A DNA stretch of 64,000 nucleotides from a bacterium (GTDB lineage: Bacteria; Myxococcota_A; UBA9160; UBA6930). The translations under genes and the position numbers were made by a program. Numbering within the stretch: position 1 is the first letter of the stretch; each line of letters begins with the position of its first letter. The notes beneath the pieces are model-generated. The model worked only from the letters and a program-made list of their open reading frames with translations. It had not been told where the DNA came from and did no database searches. Positions 8,778 to 35,887 of this stretch are shown one piece after another. The stretch lies in NCBI GenBank assembly GCA_024226235.1, contig JAAELW010000079.1, positions 366-64,365 of the forward strand, written 5' to 3'.

Positions 8778-10457
8778 CTAGCCGGCCGGAGCGACCATCT
8801 TCGCATAGCCCGCGATGAACGGTGACAGACTCACGTCGTCGACCTCGACGTTGATGATCGACGGCTTCCCGTTGGCGGCGGCGCGGCGGATCGCCGGCAG
8901 GATTTCATCCGGATCCGTCACCCGTTCACCATGGCCATCCCACATGGCGGTCATCTTCTCGTAGGCGCGCATATGTTGCAGTTCGGTATTGCACTGCCCC
9001 TTGCCGGAGATCTCTGTGGGCCGGATGTACTTCTCTGCCAGGCGGATCATCCCCCAGCCCGAGTCGTTGGAGATGACGCAGACTACGGGGATGCCCAGCC
9101 TCGCCATGGTATCCATCTCCATCGGATAGAAACCGAAGCTCCCATCGCCCGTGTACCACAGCACCGGCTTCCGGTTCGCGGCCCAGGCTCCGATCACCAG
9201 GCCAGGGCCCGTGCCGATCGTACCATTGGCTCCCGTCGCATGGATCTGCCCCGGGCGTGCCGCCGTCGACGCCATCCCCATCCACACACTGGCCTCGCCG
9301 CCGTCGATGACGAGATCCCAGTCCCGCGCGTCTTGCTCCAGGAATCTGGCCACCTCCCCCGCGCAGCGGGCCGGATGGACGGGCACACTCGCGTCGCGAA
9401 ACGGCTCGGGCAGGCTGGCCGCTCCGCGACTCTTGTCCGCCCCCGTCCAGGGGTCGCCTGAATTCGGCTCGCACTTGGCTTTGACCGATTCCAGGAGCTG
9501 AGCAGCAATCGGACCCGAACCTCCGACGATTCCCAGGTCTGCGCGAACGTTGAAGCCGATCTGCCTCCGATCGGTGTGTACCTGAATGACCTTCGCGCCG
9601 TCGGGAATCAACCGGCCCGATGCCAGTCTGAAATCGAACCTGCAGCTCATGGCCAGCACGACATCGGCGCCCGCCATGGAGTTGGTCTTCAAGAGTGGAT
9701 TGGCCAATTCGTCGCCGAACAATCCACGGCAGACGTTTCCCGCGATACCCACCGGCATCTTCAGATGCTTCGACAGCTCTGCGATAGCCCCCGCATGCTC
9801 GCCCATCGACCACCGGGCTCCATCGTCGATGATCATCGCCGGACGTTTCGCATTCGCCAGCAGATCGGCCGCCTCCTCGATCCGCTGCGTTTCTCCCTGG
9901 GGAATCGCTATGCGATCGTTGCTTGCCGGGAATCGGACGCTCTTCTCTTCCACCTCGGCAAACACGAGATCCGTGGGCACCTCCAGGTAGACCGGTCCCG
10001 GCGTCGAATCCATCGCATGACGAAAGGCCATGGACACGTATTCGGGAATGCGCTCGGTGCTGGTGATCTTCTTGGCCCACTTGCAGCACGATTCCATCAG
10101 GGTCAGGGTCGACATGTCCTGCAGATCACCCGCATCGCGCTTGCTCATCGCCACGGCCCCGCCGATCTGCAGCAGCGGAATGCTCATGGACTCCGCTTCC
10201 ATCATCCCGGCCGGCGTATTGGCGACACCCGGCCCCGCAGTCGTCACCACCACGGCCGGCTTTCCCGAGGCGCGCGTGTAGGCGATGCAGGCATACACGG
10301 CGGCACATTCATGGCGCGTATCGATCAGCTCGATGCCCGCTTCCCGCATCCCGTAGAAGATCGGCATGATATGTCCGCCGGTCAGGACGAATGCCTTCTC
10401 CACACCCTCATTGGCCAGGGCCTTCCCAAACAACGCTCCGCCGTCGATTGCACTCAT
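8778..10457 (-). CDS. Thiamine-diphosphate enzyme of the acetolactate synthase / oxalyl-CoA decarboxylase / 2-hydroxyacyl-CoA lyase superfamily
   Basis: N-terminal GALFGKALANEGVEKAFVLTGGHIMPIFYG (Pyr domain). C-terminal GTIGTGPGLVIGAW...YTGDGSFGFYPMEMDT..ISNDSGWG (ThDP motif GDGS...N). ATG at 10457 is preceded by GGAGGG. The track start 10526 adds 23 unlikely residues. Confidence 0.85.
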   Translation of the reverse strand: MSAIDGGALFGKALANEGVEKAFVLTGGHIMPIFYGMREAGIELIDTRHECAAVYACIAYTRASGKPAVVVTTAGPGVANTPAGMMEAESMSIPLLQIGGAVAMSKRDAGDLQDMSTLTLMESCCKWAKKITSTERIPEYVSMAFRHAMDSTPGPVYLEVPTDLVFAEVEEKSVRFPASNDRIAIPQGETQRIEEAADLLANAKRPAMIIDDGARWSMGEHAGAIAELSKHLKMPVGIAGNVCRGLFGDELANPLLKTNSMAGADVVLAMSCRFDFRLASGRLIPDGAKVIQVHTDRRQIGFNVRADLGIVGGSGPIAAQLLESVKAKCEPNSGDPWTGADKSRGAASLPEPFRDASVPVHPARCAGEVARFLEQDARDWDLVIDGGEASVWMGMASTAARPGQIHATGANGTIGTGPGLVIGAWAANRKPVLWYTGDGSFGFYPMEMDTMARLGIPVVCVISNDSGWGMIRLAEKYIRPTEISGKGQCNTELQHMRAYEKMTAMWDGHGERVTDPDEILPAIRRAAANGKPSIINVEVDDVSLSPFIAGYAKMVAPAG

Positions 10458-10616
10458 CTCGAATCCCTCCAGGCCGACCGGGTCTTCCGCCGTCCATTTG
10501 CGCTGGAGCGTAGCCGCGATGCCCATCCGATTCGAATTGCGGCGACCGTGCCCTTGTGGAGGGCCTGCGGTCGGCGGGGCATCATGTCTCCCCCGTGTCC
10601 TACCGAAGAGAGACGG

Positions 10617-12295: not shown

Positions 12296-12428
12296 AGGCG
12301 CAGAACCTGATTCGATGCCTGTCACCGAATAGATGATCGCCCCGTCGAGCACGGACGGAGCATGCGCAAGGCTCGCAACTAGTTCCCTGGGAATACCTGC
12401 CGGGTTCACCGGCCGCTGGAGGAATCAG

Positions 12429-13286
12429 ATGAAGAAGCACGAACTCAACGAATCGTTTCGCTGGGAGGATCACCGGGGTCCCTTCCGCCTGATCGATTCC
12501 GATCAGGCCCGGCAATTCGACGAACAGGGTTTCCTGGTATTCGAGAACGTCTTCGACGCGGGTGTGATCGATGCCCTCACCAGGGAACTCGACCCCATCG
12601 AGCGCGAGCTCGAGGATGTGGTTCGCGAACACCTCGGCGGAAAGATGTTCATCGTCCGCGCGGGAGAGATCACCTTCACGCCACATGCTGTGACCCGGTC
12701 ACCAAGAGCCAGGGGGCTTACGCAGTGCCAGTTCTTCCGCGATCTGGTGCACGATCTGCTCGGCAACGATGTACGCCTCTACTGGGACCAGACGGTCTAC
12801 AAGAAGCCGGGTACGGTCGATGACTTCCCGTGGCATCAGGACAACGGATACAACTTCGTCGAGCCGCAGCAGTATCTGACCTGCTGGGTGGCATTGACGG
12901 ATGCCGACGAGGAGAACGGCTGCCCGGTGGTACTTCCCGGATTCCATCGAGATGGCACTTGGGACCACGAGAAGACCGACCTTGGCTTCGACTGTGGCGT
13001 GGACGAGAGCGGATCCGAAACCATCGCCGCTCCCGTCAAGGCGGGCAGCGTGGTGGTCTTCTCATCGCTCACGCCACACAAGACGGGGCCGAACCTGACC
13101 ACGGACCGGCCCCGCAAGGCCTACGTGGTTCAGTTTGCTCCGGACGGTGCGAGTACCATCAGCCAAGAGGGCGGCGACATCGTGCGCACCCTCTGCAACG
13201 CCCCCGAGCGGCAGTATCCCGTCCTGGTGGGCGGTGCGGCTCCGCCCGATGATGGCGCAGCGGAATCGGGCGAGTCGCCCGGCTAG
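12429..13286 (+). CDS. Phytanoyl-CoA dioxygenase (PhyH) family Fe(II)/2-oxoglutarate oxygenase
   Basis: QARQFDEQGFLVFENVF opening, WHQDNGY (HxD facial-triad region) and a later TPHKTGPN (His). ATG at 12429 is preceded by GGAGG. Confidence 0.8.
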   Translation: MKKHELNESFRWEDHRGPFRLIDSDQARQFDEQGFLVFENVFDAGVIDALTRELDPIERELEDVVREHLGGKMFIVRAGEITFTPHAVTRSPRARGLTQCQFFRDLVHDLLGNDVRLYWDQTVYKKPGTVDDFPWHQDNGYNFVEPQQYLTCWVALTDADEENGCPVVLPGFHRDGTWDHEKTDLGFDCGVDESGSETIAAPVKAGSVVVFSSLTPHKTGPNLTTDRPRKAYVVQFAPDGASTISQEGGDIVRTLCNAPERQYPVLVGGAAPPDDGAAESGESPG

Positions 13287-15727: not shown

Positions 15728-15745
15728 TGCGGCTTCTCCTGAATT

Positions 15746-18546: not shown

Positions 18547-18888
18547 CTACCCGGAATGCGCACACAAGAAATAGCTCAGGGATCGGATGCGGCCTTCCTC
18601 CACGATGAAGAGATCGACCGCATGAATGCTCACTTCATCGGATAGATCGATGTAGACCTCAGCCGCTACGCGGGCGCCATCCGCCAGAAGAGGCCCAGCC
18701 GAGCGTGGGCTCGGACCGGCGCGCTCGATCGTATTTTCGTAGAACTCGCGAATCGCGTCCTTTCCCGTCCTGGTCGTGCCGAGGCCAACCAACGTCGCGT
18801 CGTCGTGAAACAGGTCCACGACCGCCTTGTCACCGGCGCGCATCCTCGAAAAATACTCGGCAACCACGCTCTTCGGATCGCTGGCCAT
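18547..18888 (-). CDS. SnoaL/NTF2-like (ketosteroid-isomerase-fold) small protein
   Basis: 113 aa. VVAEYFSRMRAGDKAVVDLFHDDATLV...GKDAIREFYE is typical of the NTF2-like fold. Confidence 0.7.
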   Translation of the reverse strand: MASDPKSVVAEYFSRMRAGDKAVVDLFHDDATLVGLGTTRTGKDAIREFYENTIERAGPSPRSAGPLLADGARVAAEVYIDLSDEVSIHAVDLFIVEEGRIRSLSYFLCAHSG

Positions 18889-18924
18889 CTTTGTTCCCCT
18901 TCTTGTGGCGAATTGCTCCAGCCG

Positions 18925-20598
18925 TCACGCCTCCTCGACGAAGGGATTGTGCGCTTCGCCGAGCAGAACGTGCTTCATCACCTTGCCGGTCGCATTGCGA
19001 GGGAGAGCCTCGTACCGGAACTCCCATTTCGAGGGCACCTTGAAGTAGGCCAGGGTCTCCGCCACCCATTCCGCGAGAGCATCCGGATCGGGAGACGCAC
19101 CGTCCTCCGGAACCACCACCGCTTTCACCTCCTGTCCGAGCTCGAGGTGATCCGATCCCACGATCGCCACCTCCCGCACGTCCGGATGAGCCTCCAATCG
19201 AAGCTCGATCTCCGCGGGGTACACGTTTTCTCCACCGCGCAGGATCAGATCGCGTTTGCGGGAGTTCAAATACAGATAGCCCTCCTCCAAGCGACCCCAG
19301 TCTCCGGTATCGAGCCAGCCGTCCGCGATCAGGGCCTCCGCAGTGGCCTCCGGCCGACGCCAATACTCCAGCATGACCATCGGGCCGCGGATGAAGACCC
19401 CTCCCTCATCTCCCTCCGGCACGGGCTTGCCCTGTTCGTCGCGAATTTCGATCTCCACGGTGGGAAGCGCCCTACCCACCGAGTAGGGGCGCGTCTTCAG
19501 CTCGTCACCAAATATCAGTGTCGCCAGCGCAGTGCACTCGGTAAGCCCGTAGCCCAGACCCAGGCTGTGGCTTGCTGCAGGAAACACTTCGCGGATGCGC
19601 TCCTGGAGTTCGGGGGACATGGGCGCGCCACCGGATCCAATGCCGCGAAGGCTGGAGAGATCGTGGTCTTCCACTTCTGGATGAAACGCCACGCGATGGG
19701 CCATGGTTCCCATCGGCCCCCAGTTCGTCACGCGCTCGCGTTCGATCGTTTCCATCACGCGCACCGGGTCGAAGCGTCCCGACATCCACACCGTGGTGGC
19801 ACCGCTCATCAGCATGGTGACCGCACCCGTATAGAGCCCCGAAGCGTGGAAGAGCGGCGTGTTGACCAGCACGACGGTGGGCAGTGGCAGGGTCGCCTGT
19901 GGCTCCGGAATTGGCGTCGACAAGGTGACCCGCAGGCCATGGAAGAACTGGAGCCCCGCGAGGGAGATGATGTTGCGGTGGCTATGAACCGCGCCCTTGG
20001 GCCTGCCGGTGGTGCCACTGGTGTAGATGATGACCGCCGGGTCGTCCTCGGCGATCGGCTGGTCGGGAAGCGGCGCGTCGGGATCGCGATTCCAGAGTGC
20101 TTCGAACTCCGACTCGATCTCCACGACCGGAAACGAGAGGGAAACTCCGCGGATCCGCTCGAGGCGGCGCCGATCGCCTATCAACAGCCGGGGATCGCAA
20201 TCCTCGAGACCGAAGAGGATCTCGTCGCGAGCCCACCAGCCGTTCAGTCCCACCGCCACCGCACCCAGACTGGTGGTGGCCCAGAAGGCAACGATCCATT
20301 CCGGGCAGTTGGCGGCCAGGATCGCGACCCGGTCACCGCGGCCAACGCCGTAATCCTCCGCCAGGGTCCTTGCCACGGAAGCCACGGCTCGAAAGTGCTC
20401 AGCGTAGGAGATACGTCGGTCCTCGTAGAGGAGGCACTCCTTGTCGCCGTGGATCACAGAAGCCTCCAGAACTGCACGCAGCGATGGCATGCGCTGTTCG
20501 AAGACACTCAGGGTACGACCGAGAACCTCCGCTCGGCCGACCTCGAAGGGGGCCCCTGGGCCCTGGAGCTGTGTCTCGATTTCTTCCAGGCTGGGCAT
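18925..20598 (-). CDS. Acyl-CoA synthetase (AMP-forming, class I adenylate-forming)
   Basis: IIYTSGTTGRPKGAV P-loop, GYGLTE, DGWLDTGD, and C-terminal NATGKVMK. Confidence 0.9.
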   Translation of the reverse strand: MPSLEEIETQLQGPGAPFEVGRAEVLGRTLSVFEQRMPSLRAVLEASVIHGDKECLLYEDRRISYAEHFRAVASVARTLAEDYGVGRGDRVAILAANCPEWIVAFWATTSLGAVAVGLNGWWARDEILFGLEDCDPRLLIGDRRRLERIRGVSLSFPVVEIESEFEALWNRDPDAPLPDQPIAEDDPAVIIYTSGTTGRPKGAVHSHRNIISLAGLQFFHGLRVTLSTPIPEPQATLPLPTVVLVNTPLFHASGLYTGAVTMLMSGATTVWMSGRFDPVRVMETIERERVTNWGPMGTMAHRVAFHPEVEDHDLSSLRGIGSGGAPMSPELQERIREVFPAASHSLGLGYGLTECTALATLIFGDELKTRPYSVGRALPTVEIEIRDEQGKPVPEGDEGGVFIRGPMVMLEYWRRPEATAEALIADGWLDTGDWGRLEEGYLYLNSRKRDLILRGGENVYPAEIELRLEAHPDVREVAIVGSDHLELGQEVKAVVVPEDGASPDPDALAEWVAETLAYFKVPSKWEFRYEALPRNATGKVMKHVLLGEAHNPFVEEA

Positions 20599-20657
20599 CG
20601 TGCTGTCCTTGTCCTCGGTATCCGGGCCAGGCCGCTCCGCCAGACCTCTCGCGGGAT

Positions 20658-21458
20658 CTATTCGCCCTTGAAATCGGGCTTTCGCTTCTCCTTGAAGGCG
20701 CGTGGTCCTTCGCGGGCGTCCTTGGTGGCGAAGACGGGGCCGCCGATCTCGATCTCCTTCGCGAGCGCATCGGTCTCGCTGTAGCTCTCGTCGATCTCGC
20801 GCAGCATCTTCATGAGCGCACGGATCGAAACGGGGCCGTTGTCGCAGATCACCTCGGCGATCTTCTTCGCTTCAGCCAGAGCCTGGCCCGCAGGCACGAT
20901 CCGCCCCACCAGGCCATAGGCCAGCGCCTCCTCTGCAGTCACATGTCGCGCCGTGAGCAGGATCTCGGCCGCCAGCGTGTAGGGAATCTGTCGACGCAAT
21001 CGCACGCTGGACCCGCCGAGGGGAAAGAGCCCGCGCTTGGCCTCGGTGACACCGAAAATCGCGCCCTCACCCGCTACACGAATGTCGGTGCCCTGGAGGA
21101 TCTCGGTCCCTCCCGCCACCGCGAAACCTTCCACGGCTGCGATGATGGGCTTCATCGGTCGGTTGGCCCGGAGGAGCGCCTGCCAGTGGAGATCGGGCAC
21201 CTCGGCCATCAGCTCGTCGAGTTCTTCATCCCGTTCACCGCCTCCCCCCATGGCCTTGAGGTCAGCTCCTGCACAGAAGACATCGCCACGACCGGTGAGA
21301 ATCGCGACACGCAGGTCGGGGTCCTCGTCGAGCATTCGCCAGGCGCGGTACATGCCCGCCAGCATTCCGCCGCTCAGGGCATTCTTCGCCTCGGGACGGT
21401 TGAGGGTGACGACAAGCGTGTGGCCTTCGCGCTCGAGCAGACAATGGTCGGTGTTCAC
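20658..21458 (-). CDS. Enoyl-CoA hydratase/isomerase (crotonase) family
   Basis: LNRPEAKNAL, FCAGADL, AGGTEILQGTDIRVA, EGPRAFKEKRKP. Clear paralogue of 32817-33620. Confidence 0.9.
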   Translation of the reverse strand: MNTDHCLLEREGHTLVVTLNRPEAKNALSGGMLAGMYRAWRMLDEDPDLRVAILTGRGDVFCAGADLKAMGGGGERDEELDELMAEVPDLHWQALLRANRPMKPIIAAVEGFAVAGGTEILQGTDIRVAGEGAIFGVTEAKRGLFPLGGSSVRLRRQIPYTLAAEILLTARHVTAEEALAYGLVGRIVPAGQALAEAKKIAEVICDNGPVSIRALMKMLREIDESYSETDALAKEIEIGGPVFATKDAREGPRAFKEKRKPDFKGE

Positions 21459-21497
21459 GGGGGCTCCTGAAAATCCTGGGGATCTGTACTGTGCTGC

Positions 21498-22661
21498 CTA
21501 CTCCGGCAACCCGAGGATGGTGACGGCGCAGACCGAGCCGGGGCCGCCCAGGTTGTGGGCCATTCCGAGGCGCGCGTTCTCCACCTGGGCCCCGTCGGCG
21601 CGGCCCTGGAGTTGTTTGGTGATCTCGCAGAGCATCCGACAACCCGTGGCTCCGATCGGATGCCCGAAGCACTTGAGACCACCACTGGCGTTGATCGCAA
21701 CCTTGCCGCCAACGTCCGCGTAACCCTCACGCACGAACTTCGCTGCCTCACCTCGCTCGCAGAATCCGAGATCCTGGATGTTCAGGAGTTCCGTGATGGT
21801 GAAGCAGTCGTGCACTTCGGCCAGATCGATCTCCTCAGCGGGGTTCTTGATCCCCGCCTCCGCATACGCCTGTCTCGCCGCATTCTCGGTGGCTGGGAAG
21901 CCCAGCCAGTCGTAGGCTTCCCGATACATCGGCAGGAAGACGTCCATGCTCAGCACGCTTGCCTTGGTCAGCGCATGATCATGCTTGTGCTTGCTCTTCT
22001 TGGCGATCTCGGGCCGGGTGATCACGACTGCGGCGGCCCCATCGGACATCGCGCAGGCATCGAAACGGCCCAGCGGCCAGGCGATCATCGGCGCGTTGAG
22101 TGCCGTCTCCAGGGTGATCTCCCGCTGGAAGTGGGCCTTGGAATGCTGGGCTCCGTTCTTGTGGTTCTTGACCGCCACTCGGGCGAGATCCTCCCGATCC
22201 CAGCCGTGCTCGTGAAAGGACCGCGTGGCTGCCAGCGCGAACATGCCCGGAGCACTGGAGCCGCGAAACACCGGATGCCCCATGTCCACGGGCAGACCGG
22301 ATCCACCGACGTCCATCAGCTTCTCCACTCCGCAGGCCAGCACCACATCATAGGCTCCGGAAGCGACCGCAAAGCAGGCGTTGCGGAAGGCGTCCATGCC
22401 CGAGGCACAGAAGTTCTCCACGCGCGTGGTCGGCCTTCCAAATAGCTTGAGGGGCTCGGCAGCAACACTGCCACTCAGGCCGGTGAAGTCATAGAGGTTG
22501 CCCACCCAGGTCGCTTCGATGTCATCCGGGGTGATCCCGGCATCGTCCATCGCCTCATACGCGGCCTCCACGATGAGATCTTCGGCGTCCTTCTCCCATT
22601 GCTCACCGAATTTCGTGCAACCAACGCCGATGATGGCTGTCTTGTCCTTCATGCTTCCCAT
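21498..22661 (-). CDS. SCPx/archaeal-type thiolase with intact catalytic residues
   Basis: Nucleophile block VENFCASGMDAF and C-terminal NASGGLKCFGHPIGATG are both present. Confidence 0.85.
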   Translation of the reverse strand: MGSMKDKTAIIGVGCTKFGEQWEKDAEDLIVEAAYEAMDDAGITPDDIEATWVGNLYDFTGLSGSVAAEPLKLFGRPTTRVENFCASGMDAFRNACFAVASGAYDVVLACGVEKLMDVGGSGLPVDMGHPVFRGSSAPGMFALAATRSFHEHGWDREDLARVAVKNHKNGAQHSKAHFQREITLETALNAPMIAWPLGRFDACAMSDGAAAVVITRPEIAKKSKHKHDHALTKASVLSMDVFLPMYREAYDWLGFPATENAARQAYAEAGIKNPAEEIDLAEVHDCFTITELLNIQDLGFCERGEAAKFVREGYADVGGKVAINASGGLKCFGHPIGATGCRMLCEITKQLQGRADGAQVENARLGMAHNLGGPGSVCAVTILGLPE

Positions 22662-22705
22662 GGGATTCCCCTCTCACTTCTTCGCGTTGTCCGTATCGCT
22701 CGCTG

Positions 22706-24121
22706 CTAGGAAGCCGCCTGCGGTACGGGCCGGCATTTCCAGTAGTAGTTGTGAAAGCTCGATGCCTCGTGCAATCGGCGGAAGACCACCTCTGCGGACA
22801 TGCCGATCTCGACCTCTTCCGGGTCACCGTCGGTCATCGAGAGGAAGAGGCGGCCTCCTCCCTCCAGATCCAGCACCAGGCGGGGAACGGGCACGTTCAC
22901 GTACTTGCCATCCTCGAGGTGATCGAGTGTGAAGGTGAAGACCGTGCCGGTCTTGGCCAGCTTGATCTCCTCGATCTCGTCCTTGGTCCCACACTCGCCG
23001 CACACGCGGGGAATCGGGTACAGCACAGCACCGCAACTAGTGCAGCGACCCGCGTGGAAGTTCAGCACCACCTTGATGTCCCGCCAGTAGGTAACGGCTG
23101 AACCACGTGGGTCGACGTCGGTAACCTTCATGAGCTTGCGGAAGCGGGCGTACGAAGTGTAGTTGGGCAGGTTCCTCTTCTGGAGGAGATGTCCGGTCAG
23201 TCCCTTCCGGCCAATGACGGGGGCGAAGTCATCGTCGAGGTCCACCAGGAAGGCATCAGCGCCGTCACCATGGTTCACCACCAGCAGCTTGTCGCCGGCC
23301 TTGGCCTGTTCCAGGGCCCCGGCGAGCATCATCAGTACCAGCGGAGATCCCGGATTGCCCACCGACATGAAGAGCATGTCCTGAAGCTTCGCAGCGTCCA
23401 GACCCAGACTTCGGGCTACCTTCCCCTGGCTTCCCGGATCGCCGGCCGTGATGATTGCGTTGGCGAGATCACCGGGAGCCAGATTCTCGTGGTCGAGAAG
23501 CGCTTTCCCCGCCTCGACGGCGCTCTTCAGATATCCGTATTTGGTCTCCACCTTGGGCTCGAAGGAGCGGATGTAGCGGTCTTCGCTGCGTCGCCAGAAC
23601 CCAAGCTGTTCGCCCGAGGTAGACTCGAAACCGCGCAGCGTTGCAGGCCCTCGTTTGGAGATCAGGATCGCACCGGCCCCATCCCCGAGTAGCTGTTCCC
23701 ACATCGATTCCGGTTCACCGAGACGGCAGTCCGCCGCGACCACCAGGATGCTCCCGGCCGAGCCGGAATCGACAGCATCGACCGCCGCGCGCAAAGCCGT
23801 ACTCGCCGCACGCAGTGAGCCGGTGAAGTCAGCGGTATTGATGTCCCTGCCCATGTCGAGGGCGGCGGCGATCACGCCCGCGCACTGTTTCTCGTCGTAG
23901 GGAGAAGTCGTAGTGGCAAAGTACAGGCCATCGATGGTCGTCGGGTCCAGACCCGTCAGGCAATCCGCACCCGCTGCCACCGCCATCGTGAGACTGTCCT
24001 CGTCGGCATTCGCAACGGACCGCTCGCCGGGAACTGCCGGAACTCCCCACGCACTCGCCATCTCCTGCCTGGAAAGCCTGAACAGGGGGATGTACGCACC
24101 GAATGATGCAATCTTGGCCAT
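22706..24121 (-). CDS. HMG-CoA-synthase-like (thiolase-fold) domain fused to a C-terminal DUF35 zinc-ribbon/OB-fold domain
   Basis: The N-terminus MAKIASFGAYIPLFRLSRQEM..DEDSLTMAV resembles archaeal HMGCS. The C-terminus has CTSCGAVLYPIPRVCGECG followed by an OB-like segment. ATG at 24121; the track start 24274 adds 51 implausible residues. Confidence 0.75.
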   Translation of the reverse strand: MAKIASFGAYIPLFRLSRQEMASAWGVPAVPGERSVANADEDSLTMAVAAGADCLTGLDPTTIDGLYFATTTSPYDEKQCAGVIAAALDMGRDINTADFTGSLRAASTALRAAVDAVDSGSAGSILVVAADCRLGEPESMWEQLLGDGAGAILISKRGPATLRGFESTSGEQLGFWRRSEDRYIRSFEPKVETKYGYLKSAVEAGKALLDHENLAPGDLANAIITAGDPGSQGKVARSLGLDAAKLQDMLFMSVGNPGSPLVLMMLAGALEQAKAGDKLLVVNHGDGADAFLVDLDDDFAPVIGRKGLTGHLLQKRNLPNYTSYARFRKLMKVTDVDPRGSAVTYWRDIKVVLNFHAGRCTSCGAVLYPIPRVCGECGTKDEIEEIKLAKTGTVFTFTLDHLEDGKYVNVPVPRLVLDLEGGGRLFLSMTDGDPEEVEIGMSAEVVFRRLHEASSFHNYYWKCRPVPQAAS

Positions 24122-24254
24122 GGTTTCTTCCTCTTCGAGTAATCGGCGATCGGTCCGTTCTCGTTCGTCCGAGGCAACGTGGAAACGGGACTGTATACGA
24201 TTCTGCCACGGATCCATCGGAGTGTGATCACCCGCTCCATCCGTTTCGAATTCG

Positions 24255-24296
24255 GGAAATGAGGGCCACTTCATTTCCTTGGGGGCAGGGGGGGGG
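24255..24296. repeat. 8-bp-stem hairpin followed by a G5-CA-G9 tract abutting the stop codon of the upstream ligase gene
   Basis: GGAAATGA (24255-62) pairs with TCATTTCC (24271-78). Then tt ggggg ca ggggggggg (24281-24296). The ligase stop (cta on +) is at 24298-24300. Confidence 0.85.
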
Positions 24297-24297: not shown

Positions 24298-25917
24298 CTA
24301 GCCGGAGATTCCGAGCCGCTCCATCGCTTCCTCTCGCGTGCGCTTGAAATCGGCCTTGCCCGAGGGTGATCGGTAGACTTCAGCTACCCGCACCACGTGC
24401 TTGGGCGCCTTGAAACCGGCCAGGGATGCCTTCACGTGCTCGATGATCGCCGCGCTGTCCAACTCGCCTCCGTGGCTGGAGACGACGGCGGTGATGGCCT
24501 CGCCCCAGCGATCGTCGGGAACACCGACCACCACCGCGTCCTTCACACCGTCGAAACGCTTGACTACCTCTTCCACTTCTTCGGGGAAGACCTTCTCTCC
24601 CCCTGTATTGATGCATACCGAGCCGCGGCCGAGCAGACTGAGAGTGACCCCGTCCTCGTCGACCTCGGCCCAATCGCCGGGAACCGAAAAGCGGCCGGCC
24701 TCGCATTCGACAAAGGTCGCGGCAGTCTTCTCCGGGTCCTTGTAGTAGCCGAGGGGCTGGATGCCACCGACGCCGACCAGCCCGCGCGCCCCGGGTTCAC
24801 TCTCGATGAGTTCGAGGTTCTCGGTGAAGAGCCTCGTGGAGTCCGACAGCTGGAACTTTCCCGTCTGCACCGAGCCCGCCGCGGTGGTGAAGCTGATGCC
24901 AAGGCCGACGGCCTCCGAGGACCCGAATGCATCGGCCAGCACCAGGCCCGAGTGGTGGGCCAACAAACGCTGCTTCGTCTCCTCGCTCCACATCACTCCG
25001 GACGATGCGATCATGAACACGCTGCTGATGTCGTACGCGTCGGGATGCTCCTCGAGTTCCTTGGCCATGGGCTTGGCAAAGGGATCACCCACGATGGTGA
25101 TGGAGTTGATCTTCTCCGCACCCACGGTGCGCCACAGCTCAGCCGGATCGAACTTCCTGGGGTTCCCGAGGACGACCACGACGCCTCCACTGAACCAGGC
25201 AATCATCGCCTGAAACCAGCCCGTACCGTGCATCAGCGGCGGGCCGATCAGCGAGCGGTAGCGGACGGGCGGATTTTCCACGTAAGCGCGGTAGGCCTCT
25301 TCGGTCTCAGGAGTGGGGCCCGCACCGCCGCCGCCAAAGCGGGTAAAGATGTCGGCCTGACGCCACATCACTCCCTTGGGCAACCCGGTGGTGCCACCGG
25401 TGTAGAGGAGCATCAGATCGTCCGAACCATGTCTGGCCTCGACCGCGGGGCGATCGGTTTCAGCGGTGGCTTCGTAAGGTGCGGCACCGGCAATCGAGGC
25501 GATGTCATAGTCTCCGGCCTCTTCGACTACGAGCACACCCACGACCCGGGGCAGGTCGGGCAGCACCTTCTCGAGTAACGGGGCGAATTCCTCGTGCACC
25601 ACCACGATCTCGGCATCCGAGTTGTCGAGCAGGTAACGCAGCTCGTCTGCCTGGTAGCGATAGTTGACGTTGACGGGGACCAACGAGGACTTGAACGCCG
25701 CGTAGATGGACTCCATGTAGGCCGGATGGTTGTAGGTATAGACGGCGACCTTGCCCTGGCGTGTCGCACCGCACCCGGTCATCCACGCCGAGATGTTTCG
25801 GGCTCGACGTTCGACCTGGCTCCAGGTCATGCGTCGATCGCCCTGGATCAAGCTCTCTTCGTCAGCGCGGATTTCGGCGACGATGTCGAGAGCTTGGGCG
25901 AGGTTGCCGATGACCAT
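24298..25917 (-). CDS. Acyl-CoA synthetase (FadD-like, medium/long or polycyclic acyl substrate type)
   Basis: LLYTGGTTGLPKGVMW P-loop and C-terminal SPSGKADF. Paralogue of 28660-30297. Confidence 0.9.
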   Translation of the reverse strand: MVIGNLAQALDIVAEIRADEESLIQGDRRMTWSQVERRARNISAWMTGCGATRQGKVAVYTYNHPAYMESIYAAFKSSLVPVNVNYRYQADELRYLLDNSDAEIVVVHEEFAPLLEKVLPDLPRVVGVLVVEEAGDYDIASIAGAAPYEATAETDRPAVEARHGSDDLMLLYTGGTTGLPKGVMWRQADIFTRFGGGGAGPTPETEEAYRAYVENPPVRYRSLIGPPLMHGTGWFQAMIAWFSGGVVVVLGNPRKFDPAELWRTVGAEKINSITIVGDPFAKPMAKELEEHPDAYDISSVFMIASSGVMWSEETKQRLLAHHSGLVLADAFGSSEAVGLGISFTTAAGSVQTGKFQLSDSTRLFTENLELIESEPGARGLVGVGGIQPLGYYKDPEKTAATFVECEAGRFSVPGDWAEVDEDGVTLSLLGRGSVCINTGGEKVFPEEVEEVVKRFDGVKDAVVVGVPDDRWGEAITAVVSSHGGELDSAAIIEHVKASLAGFKAPKHVVRVAEVYRSPSGKADFKRTREEAMERLGISG

Positions 25918-30303: not shown

Positions 30304-31437
30304 CTAGATCACCCCCGTATCGCGGAATGACGCGATCTCATCGCTGCTGAAGCCCGCCTCGCCGAGCACCTCGTCGCTATGCTCTCCGAGCTTGGCCGGG
30401 CCGGCGCCGAGGTCGGCTGTCGTACGCGAGAAGCGCGGTGCGGGACGTGGTTGCCGAACACCGTCATTCACGGGAAATGCTGCCCGCGCGGCGTTGTGCG
30501 GATGCTCGTGGGCTTCGGACATGGCGAGGACCGGGGCAAAGCAGGCGTCGCTGTTCTCGAATACAGCGCACCACTGGTCCCGGGTCTTCGTCTTGAAGAT
30601 TTCCGACAGTCGCTCCTTGAGGGCCGGCCACTGGCTTTGATCCATCTGCTCGGGCAGGTCGGCACCCGCGAGACCCAGCCGCTCGACGAGGCTGGCGTAG
30701 AACTGGGGTTCGATGGAGCCGATCGACACCCACTTGCCGTCGGCGGTCTCGTATACTTCGTAGAAGTGGGCACCCGAGTCGAGCATGTTCGTACCGCGCT
30801 CCTCGCTCCACCAGCCCGCCTGGTGCGCACCGTAGATACTGGTGAGCAGAAGCGAGACGCCGTCCACCATCGCAGCGTCGACGACCTGCCCCTGACCACT
30901 GCCCTTCGTCTCGAGCAGCGCGCACACGATGCCAAAGGCCATCAGCAATCCGCCTCCCCCGAAATCTCCGACCAGGTTGAGCGGAATGGCGGGCTTCTCT
31001 CCCTTCCGGCCAATCGCGTGAAGAGCACCCGTCAGGGACACGTAGTTGATGTCGTGGCCCGCCTCCTGGGCGAGAGGACCCTCCTGTCCCCATCCCGTCA
31101 TGCGGCCGTAGACGAGACGCGGGTTGCGTTCCAGGCAAGCGTCGGGCCCGATTCCGAGCCTTTCTGTCACGCCCGGGCGGAAGCCTTCGACGAAACCATC
31201 TGCTCCTTCGACGAGACGCATGACGACATCGACGCCCGCTGGCTTCTTCAAATCGACGCAGATACAGCGCTTTCCGCGATTGACGAGATCGGCAGGTCCC
31301 GTGGGAAAGGTGCCACCCCCGGGGCGCTCGATACGGATCACATCCGCCCCCATGTCACCAAGAACCATCGCGGCAAACGGCCCGGGGCCGAGGCCGGATA
31401 TCTCGATGATTCGTGTTCCTTGCAACGGACCCATCAC
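30304..31437 (-). CDS. Alpha-methylacyl-CoA racemase-like family III CoA-transferase-fold protein
   Basis: GPLQGTRIIEISGLGPGPFAAMVLGDMGADVIRIERPG opening plus AGHDINYVSLTGALH, the racemase-type HD(I)NY block. Its stop lies 6 nt upstream of the start (30297) of the downstream ligase gene. Confidence 0.8.
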   Translation of the reverse strand: MMGPLQGTRIIEISGLGPGPFAAMVLGDMGADVIRIERPGGGTFPTGPADLVNRGKRCICVDLKKPAGVDVVMRLVEGADGFVEGFRPGVTERLGIGPDACLERNPRLVYGRMTGWGQEGPLAQEAGHDINYVSLTGALHAIGRKGEKPAIPLNLVGDFGGGGLLMAFGIVCALLETKGSGQGQVVDAAMVDGVSLLLTSIYGAHQAGWWSEERGTNMLDSGAHFYEVYETADGKWVSIGSIEPQFYASLVERLGLAGADLPEQMDQSQWPALKERLSEIFKTKTRDQWCAVFENSDACFAPVLAMSEAHEHPHNAARAAFPVNDGVRQPRPAPRFSRTTADLGAGPAKLGEHSDEVLGEAGFSSDEIASFRDTGVI

Positions 31438-31533: not shown

Positions 31534-32760
31534 CTATCCGACGCGATGCGCCTCGAAAGTCTGCGCGCCAGCGTTCTCGTCGAGCAGATGGCGGGCAATC
31601 GTGAGAATCTGGATTTCGGTCGTTCCTCCGCCCAGCTCGAGAAGCTTGGCATCGCGTACGAGGCGTTCCACCTCGTACTCGGATATGTAGCCGTAGCCCC
31701 CAAGAATGTGGATCGCTTGCTGCGTGACTCGTGAGCCCACTTCTGCAACGTATAGCTTGGCCGCACAAGCATCGATGACCGAACCGGTCTGTTGCTTTGC
31801 ATAGACGATACGACGGCTGTTGCTGATATCCACGTACATGCGTGCGAGGCGTTCCTGTACGAGTTGATAGTTCGCGATCGGCTGACCGCCCTGTTCGCGG
31901 CTCTTCGCATACTCCAGCGCAATCTCGAATGCCTTCTCCGCGAGTGCATAACTCAGCGTCGCGATACCCAGGCGTTCTCCGGCCAGAGACTTGCGGACGT
32001 GATCTCGGTCCTCGACGCCACGGCCCAGGAGGTTGTCCGCGGGCACCTCCACGTCATCGAAGAAGACTTCACCGGTGGGGGAGGTCTTCATTCCCATTTT
32101 GTGGAACGGCTTGCTGGTGGTCACACCCTTCCACTCTCTTTCCACGATGTAGGCCTGAATCGCACCCGTGTCTGCATCCTTGGCATAGACGAGGAAGACA
32201 TCTCCATATGGGGCGTTGGTGATGAAGGTCTTGGAGCCATTCAGGATGTAGGAATCACCGGTCTTCTTTGCCGTCGTCCGCATCGAACCGAAGGCATCCG
32301 ATCCGGCGCCCGGCTCCGTCAAGCACCAACAACCGATCTTCTGCCCGCGCAGCACTGACGGCACGTATTTCTTGATCTGCTCGGGCGTACCATGCTTACG
32401 GATGTTGCCAGCACAGAGCCCGACACTCACGCCCCATGAGCTGCAAAGGCCCGGATTGACGCGAGCCATCTCGATGGTGAGCTGATTTCCCGCAAAGGTG
32501 ACGATCCGTTTCGTTTCCTCGTCATCGTCCGCGGGTTCGGCCGAGCTCTCGCCGTTCTTCACACCACCGGTGCTTTCGAGCCAATCCGCATCGGGAGCCA
32601 GGCCAAGGTCGGCGATCATCTGCTCGATGAAGGGAAAGGGCAGGATCTCCTGGTTCTCGAGCTGCTCGGTCAGAGGCGCGAGTTCGTTCTCCATGTACTT
32701 GCGGAACTGATCGCGGATGCCGCGTTCCATATCTGTGAACTGAACATCGTATACGGCCAT
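31534..32760 (-). CDS. Acyl-CoA dehydrogenase
   Basis: CLTEPGAGSD and C-terminal GGYGYISEYEVERLVRDAKLLELGGGTTEIQ. ATG at 32760 is preceded by GGGAGG. Confidence 0.9.
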   Translation of the reverse strand: MAVYDVQFTDMERGIRDQFRKYMENELAPLTEQLENQEILPFPFIEQMIADLGLAPDADWLESTGGVKNGESSAEPADDDEETKRIVTFAGNQLTIEMARVNPGLCSSWGVSVGLCAGNIRKHGTPEQIKKYVPSVLRGQKIGCWCLTEPGAGSDAFGSMRTTAKKTGDSYILNGSKTFITNAPYGDVFLVYAKDADTGAIQAYIVEREWKGVTTSKPFHKMGMKTSPTGEVFFDDVEVPADNLLGRGVEDRDHVRKSLAGERLGIATLSYALAEKAFEIALEYAKSREQGGQPIANYQLVQERLARMYVDISNSRRIVYAKQQTGSVIDACAAKLYVAEVGSRVTQQAIHILGGYGYISEYEVERLVRDAKLLELGGGTTEIQILTIARHLLDENAGAQTFEAHRVG

Positions 32761-32816
32761 GTCGACCTCCCAGGCCAGCATCGCCGAGCCGCCAACCGTC
32801 GTGCAGTGCGCTCGGC

Positions 32817-33620
32817 TCAGTGTCCCTTGAAGACGGGCTTGCGCTTTTCCAGGAAGGCGCGCGGTCCCTCGACTGCGTCCTTTGATTGCAAGACCGGCAT
32901 GCCGTAGCCGGTTTCGATCCCGAAGGCCTGCTCCTCGGGCAGCATGTCGGTCTCGCGCAATGTCGCGAGAATGGCCGTCACCGCGAGGGGGCCGTTCTCG
33001 GCAATGCGCTCGGCGATCTCCCGGGCCTTGGCAACGGCCTGGCCATCGGGCACGACGTGATTGATCAAGCCCAGCTCGAAGGCCCGTGCCGCGGTGAAGT
33101 CCTCGCCCACGAGAAGGATCTCGGCCGCGACCGCATAGGGGATCTGGCGGCGCAGCCGCACGACCGAGCCTGCCATCGGAAACAGCCCGCGCTGCACTTC
33201 GGTGACTCCGAACATGGCACTCTCGCCGGCGACGCGGATGTCGGTGCCCTGCAGGATCTCGGTCCCGCCCGCGCGCGCGAAACCCTCGGCGGCCAGAATC
33301 ACCGGTTTCTTCGGTCGGTGGGTCTTGAGCCAGGCACCCATGATCAGCGGCGGCTCACCCACGGCCCGCTTCATCCAATCGTTCTCGAGCTTTCCTGCCG
33401 TGAGCTTGGAGATCTCCGAGAGATCCATCCCAGCACAGAAGGTGTCCCCCTTCCCCGTGAGAATGGCGACGCGAAGATCATCATCGGCGTCCAGCTGGAG
33501 CCAGGCGTCATAGAGACGACACATGGCCTCGCAGTTGACCGCGTTCTTCTTCTCCGGGCGGTTCAAGGTGACGGTCAGGATCGCTCCGTCCTTCTCGACA
33601 AGCACAGCGGGGGCGGACAT
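32817..33620 (-). CDS. Enoyl-CoA hydratase/isomerase (crotonase) family
   Basis: LNRPEKKNAV, FCAGMDL, AGGTEILQGTDIRVA, EGPRAFLEKRKP. Confidence 0.9.
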   Translation of the reverse strand: MSAPAVLVEKDGAILTVTLNRPEKKNAVNCEAMCRLYDAWLQLDADDDLRVAILTGKGDTFCAGMDLSEISKLTAGKLENDWMKRAVGEPPLIMGAWLKTHRPKKPVILAAEGFARAGGTEILQGTDIRVAGESAMFGVTEVQRGLFPMAGSVVRLRRQIPYAVAAEILLVGEDFTAARAFELGLINHVVPDGQAVAKAREIAERIAENGPLAVTAILATLRETDMLPEEQAFGIETGYGMPVLQSKDAVEGPRAFLEKRKPVFKGH

Positions 33621-33671: not shown

Positions 33672-34826
33672 TCAACTGAAGCTCGGGTTCGGATCCGAAC
33701 TCACGATCCACATCGCGAAGTAATTCGAGGCTCCACCGTAGGCGTGACCGAGGGCAACACGTGCGCCATCCACCTGGTAGTCGCCAGCGGTACCGCGGAC
33801 CTGGTTTGCAGCTTCGAGGCAGCGAACCATCCCCGACGCACCGATCGCGTTGGAAGAGAGAACACCGCCCGACATGTTCACCGGGAAATCACCACCGAGC
33901 TCGGTCGCACCCGAGTCGGTCATCTTCCAGCCGTCGCCCTCGTCGGCGATCAGGTGGCCTTCGAGCCACATCGGTTCGAACCAGCTGAAGGGGACATAGA
34001 GCTCGGCACAATCGATCTGGCGACGCGGATCGGTGATACCGGCCTTCTTGTACAAGGCCTTCGCACACTCCACACCCGCTGCCGGCTTCACCGGATCGCG
34101 GCCGGGGAATACCGTGAATTCGGTCCGCTTCGCATGAGCGAGCACCCAGGCGGGAGGTCGCGGCGTTCGCTTCGCACCGGCAACCGTCGTAATCACCATG
34201 GCCGCCGCACCGTCGGAGGAAGGGCACGCCTCGAAGAAGTGGAGGGGATCCCAGAGCATCGGGCTCTCCTTCACCTTCTCGATTGTAATTCCCTCCATCT
34301 GCAGATGTGCGTACGGATTCTTGAGCGCGTTCAAGCGATCCTTGACCGCGACCTTCCAGCCAATGTGCGGAGGCGCGCCACTCCTCTTGATGTACTCGCG
34401 AATCCATGGAGCGAAAGAACCGCCGGCACCGGCTCCTCCGCTACGGCCGCCACTCAGCGCCCACATGAAGTCGCCCTCGCTCTGCTTCTCGTACGCCAGG
34501 GTGAGAACCGTCTCATACATGCCGCTCTCGACAAGCGTCGCCGCGCTGATGGCGGTGGATGCGCCCACCGAGCCCGCAGTGTGGACGCGGTGAATGGGCT
34601 TGCCCACCGCATTCAGAGCATCCGCGAGCGATAGCTCGGGCATCATCACGCCCTCGAGGGCATCCGGAGCCTTGCCGATCACGACCGCATCGATGTCCGC
34701 AAAAGTCAGTTCCGCATCCTCGAGCGCGCGCAATGCAGCCTCGCGGACGAGACCATCCAGCGAGAGCGGGAGGCAACGGTCGTACTTGGTCTGCCCGAGT
34801 CCGACGACTCCACAGCGCTCGGCCAT
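33672..34826 (-). CDS. Thiolase-fold protein lacking the canonical nucleophile (Ltp-type, candidate retro-aldolase subunit)
   Basis: SCPx-like fold, but the nucleophile block reads VHTAGSVGASTAI (no Cys). The C-terminal block reads NMSGGVLSSNAIGASG (no GHP). Confidence 0.75.
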   Translation of the reverse strand: MAERCGVVGLGQTKYDRCLPLSLDGLVREAALRALEDAELTFADIDAVVIGKAPDALEGVMMPELSLADALNAVGKPIHRVHTAGSVGASTAISAATLVESGMYETVLTLAYEKQSEGDFMWALSGGRSGGAGAGGSFAPWIREYIKRSGAPPHIGWKVAVKDRLNALKNPYAHLQMEGITIEKVKESPMLWDPLHFFEACPSSDGAAAMVITTVAGAKRTPRPPAWVLAHAKRTEFTVFPGRDPVKPAAGVECAKALYKKAGITDPRRQIDCAELYVPFSWFEPMWLEGHLIADEGDGWKMTDSGATELGGDFPVNMSGGVLSSNAIGASGMVRCLEAANQVRGTAGDYQVDGARVALGHAYGGASNYFAMWIVSSDPNPSFS

Positions 34827-35887
34827 CAGGACTCTCCTTCCAGAATGCAGAGCAGGTTCTGCTGCAGTGCGGGTCCACTGGCCGCATGCCCGAGACCGCG
34901 TCCCGCTTCACCCGCGCGGATTCGGCGCGCCAGTTCGATGACTCGTGTCAGACCGGTCGCCATCACCGGATGACCACAGAGCGGCCCGCCGGAGGGGTTG
35001 ATCCTGGTGTGGTCGCCGAGGTCGAGTGCCTGGCGCAGAACGATCTCCTCGGGGCTGTAGCGAACGCAGAGCTCCGCCATATCGAGAGAGCCCGGGTCGA
35101 GACCCAGATGGCGCGCTGCAATACGCGACGATGGGGAGTCCGTCAGGTCGCGCAGGCCCAGGTGGTGGGATTCGATGCGATGGTCGATGCCGCGGATCCA
35201 AACCGGCTTCTCGCAAAGCTCGCGCGCACGGTGACCACGCGCGATGAGCATGGCCGATGCGCCATCGGAGATGGGCGGCAGGTCGTGTTTGCGGAGCGGC
35301 GAGGCATAGTACGGCTCTTCCAGCAGGTTTTCGGCGGGGATGTCCTTGGCGACCTGCGCGTATGGATTCGAAAGGGCATCGCGCCGGCTTCGCGAGACGA
35401 CCTCCGCGAAATCGCGCTCGCTGGCCTTCCCGGCCTGGAGCAAAGCGCTGGCCTGAAGTCCGGCCACGGAAACCGGATCGAGGCCGATCGGCGCATGAAC
35501 ATAGGGATCGGCCTGGAGAGGGAAGATCTCCCGCGGAGTGCCCGGCGACGATTTTCCGGAACCCGCGACCAGCGCGAGATCGATGTCCCCCATCTGGAGG
35601 CGCACGAACGCCTCGAAGAGCGCCCAGGCCCCATCCATCTCGACATGGGACTCATAGACCGGCGGCCAGGCACCAAAGCCGTCCACATTCGCGATGAAGC
35701 AGAATGGAGAGCCCGAAAGGTAGTCACTGCTGCCGGCAATCGTGAAATCGATCTGGTGCCGGTCGAGCCCGGTTTCCTCCAGAATCTGGTTCACGAGCCC
35801 CATCAACATCGACGGCTCGGTATCGGGGTAGCTTCGAACACAGGGCGTCTGCGCATAGGCGACGATCGCAATCTCTTCGGCCAACAC
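34826..35887 (-). CDS. Thiolase-fold protein lacking the N-terminal nucleophile Cys (partner subunit)
   Basis: The nucleophile region reads HVEMDGAWALFEA (no Cys). The C-terminal NPSGGPLCGHPVMATG is retained. Its stop overlaps the next gene's start by 1 nt (TGATG). Confidence 0.75.
   Translation of the reverse strand: MLAEEIAIVAYAQTPCVRSYPDTEPSMLMGLVNQILEETGLDRHQIDFTIAGSSDYLSGSPFCFIANVDGFGAWPPVYESHVEMDGAWALFEAFVRLQMGDIDLALVAGSGKSSPGTPREIFPLQADPYVHAPIGLDPVSVAGLQASALLQAGKASERDFAEVVSRSRRDALSNPYAQVAKDIPAENLLEEPYYASPLRKHDLPPISDGASAMLIARGHRARELCEKPVWIRGIDHRIESHHLGLRDLTDSPSSRIAARHLGLDPGSLDMAELCVRYSPEEIVLRQALDLGDHTRINPSGGPLCGHPVMATGLTRVIELARRIRAGEAGRGLGHAASGPALQQNLLCILEGES

Follow-up and report, generated by a model that had tools for sequence, protein, structure and literature searches.

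Why would a bacterium keep, immediately upstream of an intact thiolase gene, a gene whose product resembles 3-hydroxy-3-methylglutaryl-coenzyme A (HMG-CoA) synthase (HMGCS) and yet has lost the catalytic Glu, Cys and His of that enzyme? We address this question for a stretch of 64,000 nucleotides (nt) from a bacterium of the Myxococcota_A (UBA9160; UBA6930), which comprises positions 366 to 64,365 of contig JAAELW010000079.1 in GenBank assembly GCA_024226235.1 and is referred to below as the window. Here, a gene for a protein of 471 amino acids (aa) in which an HMGCS-like domain is fused to a DUF35 module (22706..24121, minus strand) is followed by the gene for a thiolase of the SCP2/archaeal type (387 aa, 21498..22661, minus strand). 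We consider it probable that the two genes encode a heteromeric degradative thiolase, in which the thiolase catalyses the reaction and the dead HMGCS::DUF35 protein is a non-catalytic subunit or scaffold. The same architecture was published and assayed in Pseudomonas in January 2026, and the window locus is a further example of a widespread type; a first-pass annotation that read the fused protein as a pseudo-HMGCS::DUF35 beside an intact thiolase had anticipated, from the sequence, what that study published.

Architecture of the fused protein and loss of the HMGCS active site

In the list of open reading frames (ORFs), the frame of the fusion gene (22706-24274, minus strand) is open for 522 aa and is thus longer than the 471-aa gene within it. 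Near homologues of the fusion are 468-471 aa long and share the N-terminus MAxIASFGAY, and a GAGGAAG ribosome-binding site lies ~7 nt 5' of the ATG at 24121; on the basis of these lengths, N-termini and ribosome-binding site, the start is placed at 24121, as the first-pass annotation had correctly done. Residues 1-335 (23117..24121, minus strand) make up an HMGCS/FabH-like thiolase-fold domain that, as judged from PDB sequence matches, Foldseek, alignments and codons, is catalytically dead. Comparison with PDB sequences shows that residues 4-332 match HMGCS of Methanothermococcus thermolithotrophicus (6esq_I, E = 2e-26), and that the domain also matches PhlA (5m3k_A, 6e-25) and MucA (9vbo_A). 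When an AlphaFold2 model of the fusion (32 homologues as input; pLDDT 71, pTM 0.65) was compared to the PDB with Foldseek, the best matches were 6et9_I/6esq_I (TM score 0.83, normalised to the target); PhlA and MucA came next, ahead of bacterial HMGCS and FabH. The proposed homology of the N-terminal domain to HMGCS is thus borne out by both the sequence match and the fold.

The C-terminal DUF35 module (aa 343-465; 22727..23095, minus strand), identified by Pfam and PDB matches, comprises a zinc ribbon and an OB fold and ends in the motif FHNYYWKCRP. The ribbon is of the rubredoxin-like, four-Cys kind, with the pattern C360-x2-C363 ... C374-x2-C377 (nt 22991-23044, minus strand). Pfam domains were found at aa 104-158 (ACP_syn_III), 357-379 (zf-ChsH2) and 387-448 (OB_ChsH2_C); the score of the OB-fold model PF01796 is above its cut-off (38.6 vs. 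27.1), which places the module in DUF35, and that of the zinc-ribbon model PF12172 is slightly below (21.8 vs. 23.2). The module also matches the archaeal DUF35 chain 6esq_E (7e-14 in the full-length query, 7e-15 for the domain alone), so that the earlier assignment of the CxxC..CxxC ribbon and OB fold to DUF35 stands on both Pfam and the PDB match. The HMGCS of 6esq could be aligned nearly to its final residue and the DUF35 chain from residue 3, with a linker of ~10 residues; therefore, the two proteins are joined end to end in the fusion.

The catalytic tetrad of archaeal HMGCS consists of E82, C114, H238 and N270 (PMC12960953). We mapped these positions onto the fusion with a HMMER alignment and two MAFFT alignments that included 6esq_I, and read the codons directly (all on the minus strand). 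In the alignment to 6ESQ, E82 is replaced by T71 (23909-23911), C114 by L103 (23813-23815) and H238 by T225 (23447-23449), and the Asn is kept as N256 (23354-23356). The Glu loop reads FATTTSPYDEK in the fusion vs. VGSESHPYAVK in the archaeal enzyme, and the Cys loop reads ADFTGSLRAAST vs. ADLEFACKAGT. The first-pass annotation had reported both motifs to be devoid of Cys and Glu; its strings are exact, and the alignments with 6esq_I place L103 and T71 in the two catalytic columns. On these alignments, the HMGCS-like domain has lost its nucleophile, general acid and general base, with the Asn alone being kept.

An exhaustive search of cluster representatives identified 477 clusters at 50% identity that match the fusion with E ≤ 1e-30; from the best 150 of these, we took the 138 representatives that are 430-500 aa long (33-50% identity). 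Among these diverse fused proteins, Glu occurs in the E82 column in 0 of 138, Cys in the C114 column in 0 of 138, and His in the H238 column in 2 of 138, and all three residues are likewise missing from 55 of 55 genomic fused homologues and from 4 of 4 homologues from cultured organisms (29-34% identity). The tetrad Asn is variable (kept in 47 of 138). Because the substitutions are fixed throughout the family, the losses in the window protein cannot be attributed to chance. A nucleophilic Cys elsewhere in register, the possibility that had been singled out for checking, was not found to be conserved among the 138 representatives. We considered Cys54 as a substitute nucleophile and rejected it, given that it is present in 95% of the near relatives, yet in 85 of 138 proteins of the wider family and hence not family-wide; cysteines close to the former nucleophile are sporadic (position +2 in 15 of 138, position -1 in 5 of 138) and were rejected as well.

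The loops that replaced the active site are themselves kept among the 138 representatives, with the consensus [FL]A[ST]T[TS]xP[YF]xEK and DxxxSLRxGT (T71 in 120, E77 in 127, K78 in 114, S102 in 114, L103 in 102, and R104 in 126). The zinc-ribbon cysteines C360, C363, C374 and C377 are retained in 137-138 of 138, and the core Y459-x-W461-K462 near the C-terminus in 135-137. The complete C-terminal motif FHNYYWKCRP (aa 456-465, nt 22727-22756) is near-invariant among close relatives, and archaeal DUF35 has SYGYKFVP in its place; the motif possibly contributes to the CoA chamber or to an interface.

The adjacent thiolase is intact

The thiolase gene begins 44 nt past the stop codon of the fusion gene on the same strand and has its own GAGAGGGG ribosome-binding site. 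Its product contains the Pfam domains Thiolase_N and Thiolase_C_1 (PF22691, 147 bits) and scores above the cut-off of the NCBIfam model PRK06157 (510.9 vs. 403). Among solved structures, it is closest to acetoacetyl-CoA thiolases of the archaeal type (7yvy, 3e-70; 6esq_A, 5e-66), followed by BbsB and SCP2-thiolases, with PhlC far weaker (5e-27). The features of the SCP2/archaeal class are all found, namely, the Cys nucleophile, an HDCF motif that replaces the Cys of the C-terminal CxG, and the GHP His. In particular, Cys85 lies in ENFCASG (22407-22409, minus strand), His284 and Cys286 in EVHDCF (21804-21812, minus strand) and His334 in GHPIGA (21660-21662, minus strand), and Asn324 in NASGG is present as well. 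The description of this gene as an intact thiolase thus agrees with all three motifs (Cys85, HDCF, and His334 of GHP). In every partner thiolase compared (n = 54), the Cys, HDCF, NxSGG and GHP are kept.

The fused family is large and paired with thiolases in Bacteria and Archaea

In a word-indexed search in which 8,000 candidates were scored, we identified at least 2,834 relatives of the fusion at E ≤ 1e-5. The 120 relatives listed from this search are 58-100% identical to the fusion, nearly all are 468-476 aa long, and their source records name them 'HMG-CoA synthase' or 'OB-fold domain-containing protein'. Nearly all of the 138 more distant representatives also align to the fusion over its whole length. 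We further examined 61 genomic loci, 55 of which contain a full-length fusion. According to the labels of the metagenome-assembled genomes (MAGs), the bacterial hosts belong to Deltaproteobacteria, Myxococcota, Binatia, Dehalococcoidia, other Chloroflexota, Acidobacteriota, Actinomycetota, Clostridia and Spirochaetota, and the archaeal hosts to Promethearchaeota (Asgard) and Halobacteriota; the full-length fusion was also found in Desulfovirgula thermocuniculi. Counted from a BLAST-based table, a thiolase gene lies directly downstream of the fusion and co-oriented with it in ~50 of the 55 loci, across Bacteria and Archaea. Archaeal loci with a triad-less fusion beside a thiolase come from Asgard/Promethearchaeota MAGs (L040, L043, L045-L050, L053 and L060), a Halobacteriota MAG (L036) and Haloferax mediterranei pHME505 (L064). 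Just upstream of the Asgard pairs, two genes recur, one for a GNAT acetyltransferase and one of ~346 aa without a Pfam match. The H. mediterranei cluster, in which the order is reversed and the thiolase gene precedes the fusion gene, also contains paaK and genes for a 3-hydroxyacyl-CoA dehydrogenase and a hydratase.

Comparison of the two members of the pair shows that the HMGCS-like domain is 60-87% identical to that of the window protein vs. 70-98% for the partner thiolase. On these identities, the dead domain appears to change somewhat faster than the thiolase, yet to be clearly constrained, in keeping with purifying selection. Clustering of the gene neighbourhoods revealed no third gene common to all fusion loci, and the context varies with lineage. 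In Dehalococcoidia, the pair is followed by short-chain dehydrogenase/reductase (SDR) genes in a housekeeping setting that includes glutamine synthetase and lipoyl synthase. Plasmid-borne fused homologues (26-34% identity) adjoin an 'acetyl-CoA acetyltransferase' in clusters of the beta-oxidation type; among their hosts are Novosphingobium, Sphingobium, Rhodococcus, Mycobacterium avium, Variovorax, Azoarcus and many haloarchaea, whereas Pseudomonas is absent from the 57 plasmid matches. One cluster representative (P0269, 911 aa) is a natural four-part fusion, pseudo-HMGCS::DUF35::SDR::SCP2. This chain physically connects the module with the 3-hydroxyacyl-CoA dehydrogenase step, a hint that neighbouring enzymes of the pathway may be recruited by the pseudo-enzyme. 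Another long representative (P0221, 723 aa) looks chimeric or misassembled and was set aside.

The gene neighbourhood in the window is catabolic

The first-pass annotation had placed the pair in a catabolic bacterial context, and the surrounding genes bear this out, with an acyl-CoA dehydrogenase, hydratases, ligases, a racemase, a PhyH-family dioxygenase and an enzyme similar to 2-hydroxyacyl-CoA lyase. The next gene downstream of the thiolase encodes an EchA19-like enoyl-CoA hydratase (20658..21458, minus strand; PRK07799, 369 bits, cut-off 316; EchA19 model, 346 bits, cut-off 400), and beyond it lies the gene for an acyl-CoA synthetase resembling the steroid-24-oyl-CoA synthetase CasG (18925..20598, minus strand; 690 bits, with the cut-off of 750 not reached). 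Directly upstream of the fusion is another acyl-CoA synthetase gene (24298..25917, minus strand; PRK07798, by Pfam and NCBIfam), an orthologue of which adjoins the pair in five of the loci (L001, L012, L034, L035 and L037); in total, three acyl-CoA synthetases are encoded around the pair. Farther upstream lie genes for an alpha-methylacyl-CoA racemase (30304..31437, minus strand; E = 5e-126 to Mycobacterium tuberculosis MCR, 1X74) and, as neighbours within 31534..33620, for an acyl-CoA dehydrogenase (31534..32781, minus strand) and a second EchA19-like hydratase (32817..33620, minus strand). On the other side of the pair, a thiamine pyrophosphate-dependent enzyme nearest to 2-hydroxyacyl-CoA lyase/synthase (8778..10526, minus strand; 2e-62) and, from the Pfam survey, the PhyH-family dioxygenase (12333..13286, plus strand) are encoded. 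An NMO/FabK-like flavoenzyme and an acetyl-CoA hydrolase/transferase are also encoded near the pair. No polyketide synthase (PKS) or non-ribosomal peptide synthetase (NRPS) genes turned up among the window genes surveyed with Pfam.

A second set of thiolase-fold and DUF35 proteins is encoded at 33672..36885 (minus strand). It consists of an Ltp3-like protein (PRK08313, 570 bits vs. cut-off 514), an Ltp4-like protein (PRK07937, 458 vs. 419) and a tandem-DUF35 protein of 332 aa that has two OB_ChsH2_C stretches and no CxxC zinc ribbon. The Ltp3-like and Ltp4-like proteins both lack the nucleophilic Cys and the HDCF motif, and thus look aldolase-like, as Ltp2 is. In three loci (L005, L008 and L010), such an Ltp3/Ltp4-like/DUF35 trio sits directly upstream of the fusion-thiolase pair.

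Peroxisomal SCPx, the SCP2-thiolase, serves the beta-oxidation of pristanic acid and bile acids beside AMACR, PhyH and HACL1-type enzymes. The gene set of the window resembles one for the catabolism of sterol side chains and of phytanic and pristanic acids, and the racemase, 2-hydroxyacyl-CoA lyase-like and PhyH genes, whose products are of the kinds that act in the alpha- and beta-oxidation of phytanic and pristanic acids, suggest a catabolic island for methyl-branched acyl-CoAs.

Several other features of the window were recorded. Downstream of the thiolase and on its strand, a run of oxidoreductase genes (13822-18888, minus strand) encodes a SnoaL/NTF2-like protein (113 aa), a Gfo/Idh/MocA dehydrogenase, an FAD_oxidored flavoprotein (306 bits), an AurF/R2-like di-iron protein (weak match) and a carboxymuconolactone-decarboxylase-family protein. 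The far flanks (55813-58341, 53443-54936 and 48443-52710, all minus strand, and 1177-5837, plus strand) contain a gene for a protein of 842 aa in which two stretches match CoA-transferase family III, as well as genes for another acyl-CoA dehydrogenase and for an RND efflux pump of the AcrB type (952 bits) and its membrane-fusion protein. Also encoded there are a TPR/multihaem-cytochrome-like protein and, after it, a TonB-dependent receptor, which points to a diderm host. Long antisense ORFs, such as 18805-20784 and 20097-21470 (both plus strand), are expected at ~63% G+C and were not taken as genes.

Proposed function and alternative explanations

The locus displays the fused architecture, the loss of the triad, an intact thiolase, the pairing of the two genes and a catabolic neighbourhood. 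In the arrangement that we propose, the 471-aa protein would be a non-catalytic subunit derived from HMGCS and would most likely assemble with the adjacent thiolase into a hetero-oligomer comparable to the archaeal thiolase/HMGCS/DUF35 complex and to PhlACB and MucABC. All chemistry would be performed by the thiolase, with Cys85 as the acyl acceptor, the His284/Cys286 pair of HDCF, and His334; a 3-oxoacyl-CoA of a beta-oxidation pathway would thereby be cleaved by thiolysis. The dead domain and DUF35 would keep the thiolase soluble and assembled and would close a CoA-binding chamber between the subunits. In 6ESQ, the CoA sits at an interface that is formed by three proteins together (PMC6392133), and the HMGS-like subunits of MucABC and PhlACB are dead, with the substrate contacted solely by the thiolase-like subunit, yet all subunits are required for activity (PMC12960953, PMC6392133). 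The closest precedent is a fused HMGS-DUF35 of Pseudomonas fluorescens that lacks the E-C-H-N tetrad and was purified as a complex with an ACAT that keeps the Cys, HDxF and GHx (PMC12960953). This complex cleaves acetoacetyl-CoA thiolytically and forms neither HMG-CoA nor acetoacetyl-CoA, and a mutant in which the His of HDxF was changed to Tyr is almost inactive (PMC12960953).

Some considerations weigh against this proposal. For the window locus, we infer the complex, the direction of the reaction and the substrate, and the likeness to the P. fluorescens pair is one of architecture and motifs rather than of direct alignment. The model of the fusion is of moderate confidence (pLDDT 71), so that any roles of the conserved residues in a pocket or interface are conjecture. 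The substrate, tentatively a 2-methyl-branched 3-oxoacyl-CoA similar to those from isoprenoid or steroid side chains, is suggested with low confidence from the neighbouring genes. A catabolic role is not universal, given the housekeeping setting in Dehalococcoidia, and because of that same setting a single substrate for the whole family is unlikely. Finally, a new catalytic or ligand-binding role, rather than pure scaffolding, could account for how strongly the former active-site loops are conserved.

If the last point holds, the HMGCS-like domain would have been neofunctionalised, with the old loops (TTxPY..EK and D..SLR.GT) forming a new catalytic or substrate-binding site that sets specificity, for instance in a hydrolase, decarboxylase or aldolase step or in the specific binding of acyl chains that are bulky or branched. 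The conservation of the replaced motifs across the 138 representatives would be explained in this way, the authors of a study of Novosphingobium tardaugens speculated on a different activity for its homologue EGO55_13555 (PMC7793797), and in PhlACB and MucABC a continuous chamber links both thiolase-fold subunits. However, the 138 representatives share neither a conserved nucleophile nor a general base, PhlC residues alone contact the substrate in PhlACB (PMC6392133), the P. fluorescens complex performs plain thiolysis that depends on the ACAT His, and constraints on the fold or interface could equally conserve the loops; we regard neofunctionalisation, including these specific forms of it, as unlikely. 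Still less probable, in our view, is a biosynthetic, condensing ketothiolase that makes acetoacetyl-CoA or longer 3-oxoacyl-CoAs and is pulled by reductases, in the manner of the archaeal mevalonate complex or of the KT/DUF35 fatty-acid-synthase complex of Sulfolobus. The thiolase is nearest to archaeal biosynthetic acetoacetyl-CoA thiolases, the family occurs in Asgard archaea, and the Dehalococcoidia pairs precede SDR genes in housekeeping surroundings, so that such a role is possible in some lineages. Yet the P. fluorescens complex cleaved acetoacetyl-CoA and made none from acetyl-CoA, the neighbours in the window and around the plasmid homologues are degradative (acyl-CoA dehydrogenases, hydratases, ligases, a racemase and oxygenases), and with a dead HMGCS the exergonic partner enzyme is absent.

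That PhlA and MucA are among the top sequence and structure matches, and that their HMGS-like subunit is dead too, could also point to a CoA-independent C-acyltransferase of the PhlACB/MucABC (Friedel-Crafts) type in secondary metabolism. The window thiolase, however, keeps the HDxF that is lost in PhlC and MucB, its match to archaeal ACAT is far stronger than that to PhlC (5e-66 vs. 5e-27), the flanks contain no PKS or NRPS genes, and its DUF35 is fused rather than being a separate PhlB with a long N-terminal tail; because HDCF is retained and PKS/NRPS genes are absent, we exclude a PhlACB-type acyltransferase as very improbable. The database annotation, finally, would make the protein a genuine HMG-CoA synthase: the source record names it '3-hydroxy-3-methylglutaryl CoA synthase', and NCBIfam HMGCS models rank first, although the equivalog models remain under their cut-offs (NF003274, 198.7 vs. 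244; TIGR00748, 142 vs. 353). Moreover, Glu, Cys and His are all replaced, and a quadruple mutant of the tetrad in the archaeal enzyme abolished HMG-CoA synthesis (PMC12960953). Given that the triad is lost and that the family models score below threshold, we exclude this function, to which we assign almost no probability.

Returning to the two-gene degradative thiolase, we also entertain a broader and more speculative version, which we hold to be possible but doubtful. Here, the fusion and thiolase would form an ancient module under purifying selection, shared by Bacteria, Asgard archaea and haloarchaea, in which the pseudo-enzyme serves a beta-oxidation metabolon as the platform for docking and for the CoA chamber, recruits the preceding dehydrogenase or hydratase, as seen in the four-part fusion with SDR and SCP2, and sets specificity for bulky or methyl-branched 3-oxoacyl-CoAs. 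If this is correct, the metabolon would mirror, in the direction of degradation, the archaeal complexes for mevalonate and fatty-acid synthesis.

Implications for annotation

The label 'HMG-CoA synthase' would wrongly credit many genomes of uncultured Dehalococcoidia, Binatia, Myxococcota and Asgard archaea with a mevalonate pathway, and metabolic reconstructions could be corrected once the fusion is treated as the non-catalytic half of a two-gene thiolase. A thiolase step would then become assignable to the edc estrogen cluster and to clusters of the branched-chain or steroid-side-chain-like kind, such as that of the window. To the published findings, the present analysis adds that the dead fused family is large, is under purifying selection and occurs in both Archaea and Bacteria, that it recurs in defined catabolic clusters, and that it is extended by further beta-oxidation domains. 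With 477 clusters in both prokaryotic domains, the family is well suited to the question of why an enzyme domain persists once it is dead.

Comparison with known systems

The archaeal complex of M. thermolithotrophicus (6ESQ/6ET9) provides the best match for both the HMGCS-like domain and DUF35, and the second match, after 7yvy, for the thiolase. Unlike the window pair, it contains an active HMGCS that pulls the endergonic condensation for mevalonate, whereas the HMGCS of the window is dead and its setting degradative. A requirement of an SCP2-type enzyme for a DUF35 partner is also known from BbsAB benzoylsuccinyl-CoA thiolase, Ltp2-ChsH2 (DUF35) and Sal-Shy, which are steroid aldolases, and the KT/DUF35 core of the Sulfolobus fatty-acid synthase; most of these act in the catabolism of CoA esters, and BbsB uses HDxF. 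However, none of them has an HMGCS-like domain, and Ltp2 and Sal are aldolases that lack the Cys nucleophile. Peroxisomal SCPx is a thiolase of the HDCF class, and enzymes of the AMACR, PhyH and HACL1 types are also encoded in the window, a likeness by functional analogy only; SCPx is, in contrast, fused to an SCP2 domain and requires no HMGCS-like or DUF35 partner.

Among dead HMGCS-like subunits, PhlA and MucA were known earlier. PhlACB of Pseudomonas protegens and MucABC of Streptococcus combine, like the window pair, two thiolase folds with DUF35, and the Cys is in the thiolase-like subunit. They differ in that DUF35 is a separate protein, PhlC and MucB lack HDxF, the acceptors are phenolic or tetramic-acid compounds, and the genes lie in PKS/NRPS clusters; furthermore, the tetrad positions are C/G/Q/D in PhlA/MucA vs. 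T/L/T/N in the window fusion.

Closer in setting is the estradiol-induced edc cluster of N. tardaugens, in which a puzzling 'HMG-CoA synthase' (EGO55_13555) lies beside a thiolase and for which a condensation was doubted (PMC7793797). The pair EGO55_13555/13550 resembles that of the window in that a fused 'HMG-CoA synthase'/OB-fold protein is encoded beside an acetyl-CoA acyltransferase in an operon of the beta-oxidation type. The plasmid-borne homologue of Novosphingobium sp. ES2-1, in a syntenic cluster of the edc type, matches aa 2-465 of the fusion and likewise lacks the Glu, Cys and His. It is, however, only 34% identical, and its neighbours are estrogen-specific (the edcA P450, an extradiol dioxygenase and the EdcC oxidoreductase).

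In the Nature Communications study of January 2026, 1,030 bacterial HMGS/ACAT/DUF35 loci were mined, 1,001 of which have no secondary-metabolism neighbours (PMC12960953). The assayed PfACAT/HMGS-DUF35 shares its gene-level features with the window pair, that is, the HMGS-like domain and DUF35 in one chain, the lost Glu, Cys and His, an ACAT with intact Cys, HDxF and GHx motifs, and surroundings free of PKS and NRPS genes. Judged from proteobacterial homologues, it is probably only ~30% identical to the window fusion, which, unlike the P. fluorescens protein, retains the tetrad Asn as N256. Its authors describe it as an 'evolutionary intermediate' that has no pathway, whereas the window locus lies inside a clear catabolic cluster. 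Because the family is large and constrained, spans Bacteria and Archaea, occurs in catabolic clusters and acquires extra beta-oxidation domains, we disfavour the view of a pathway-less evolutionary intermediate.

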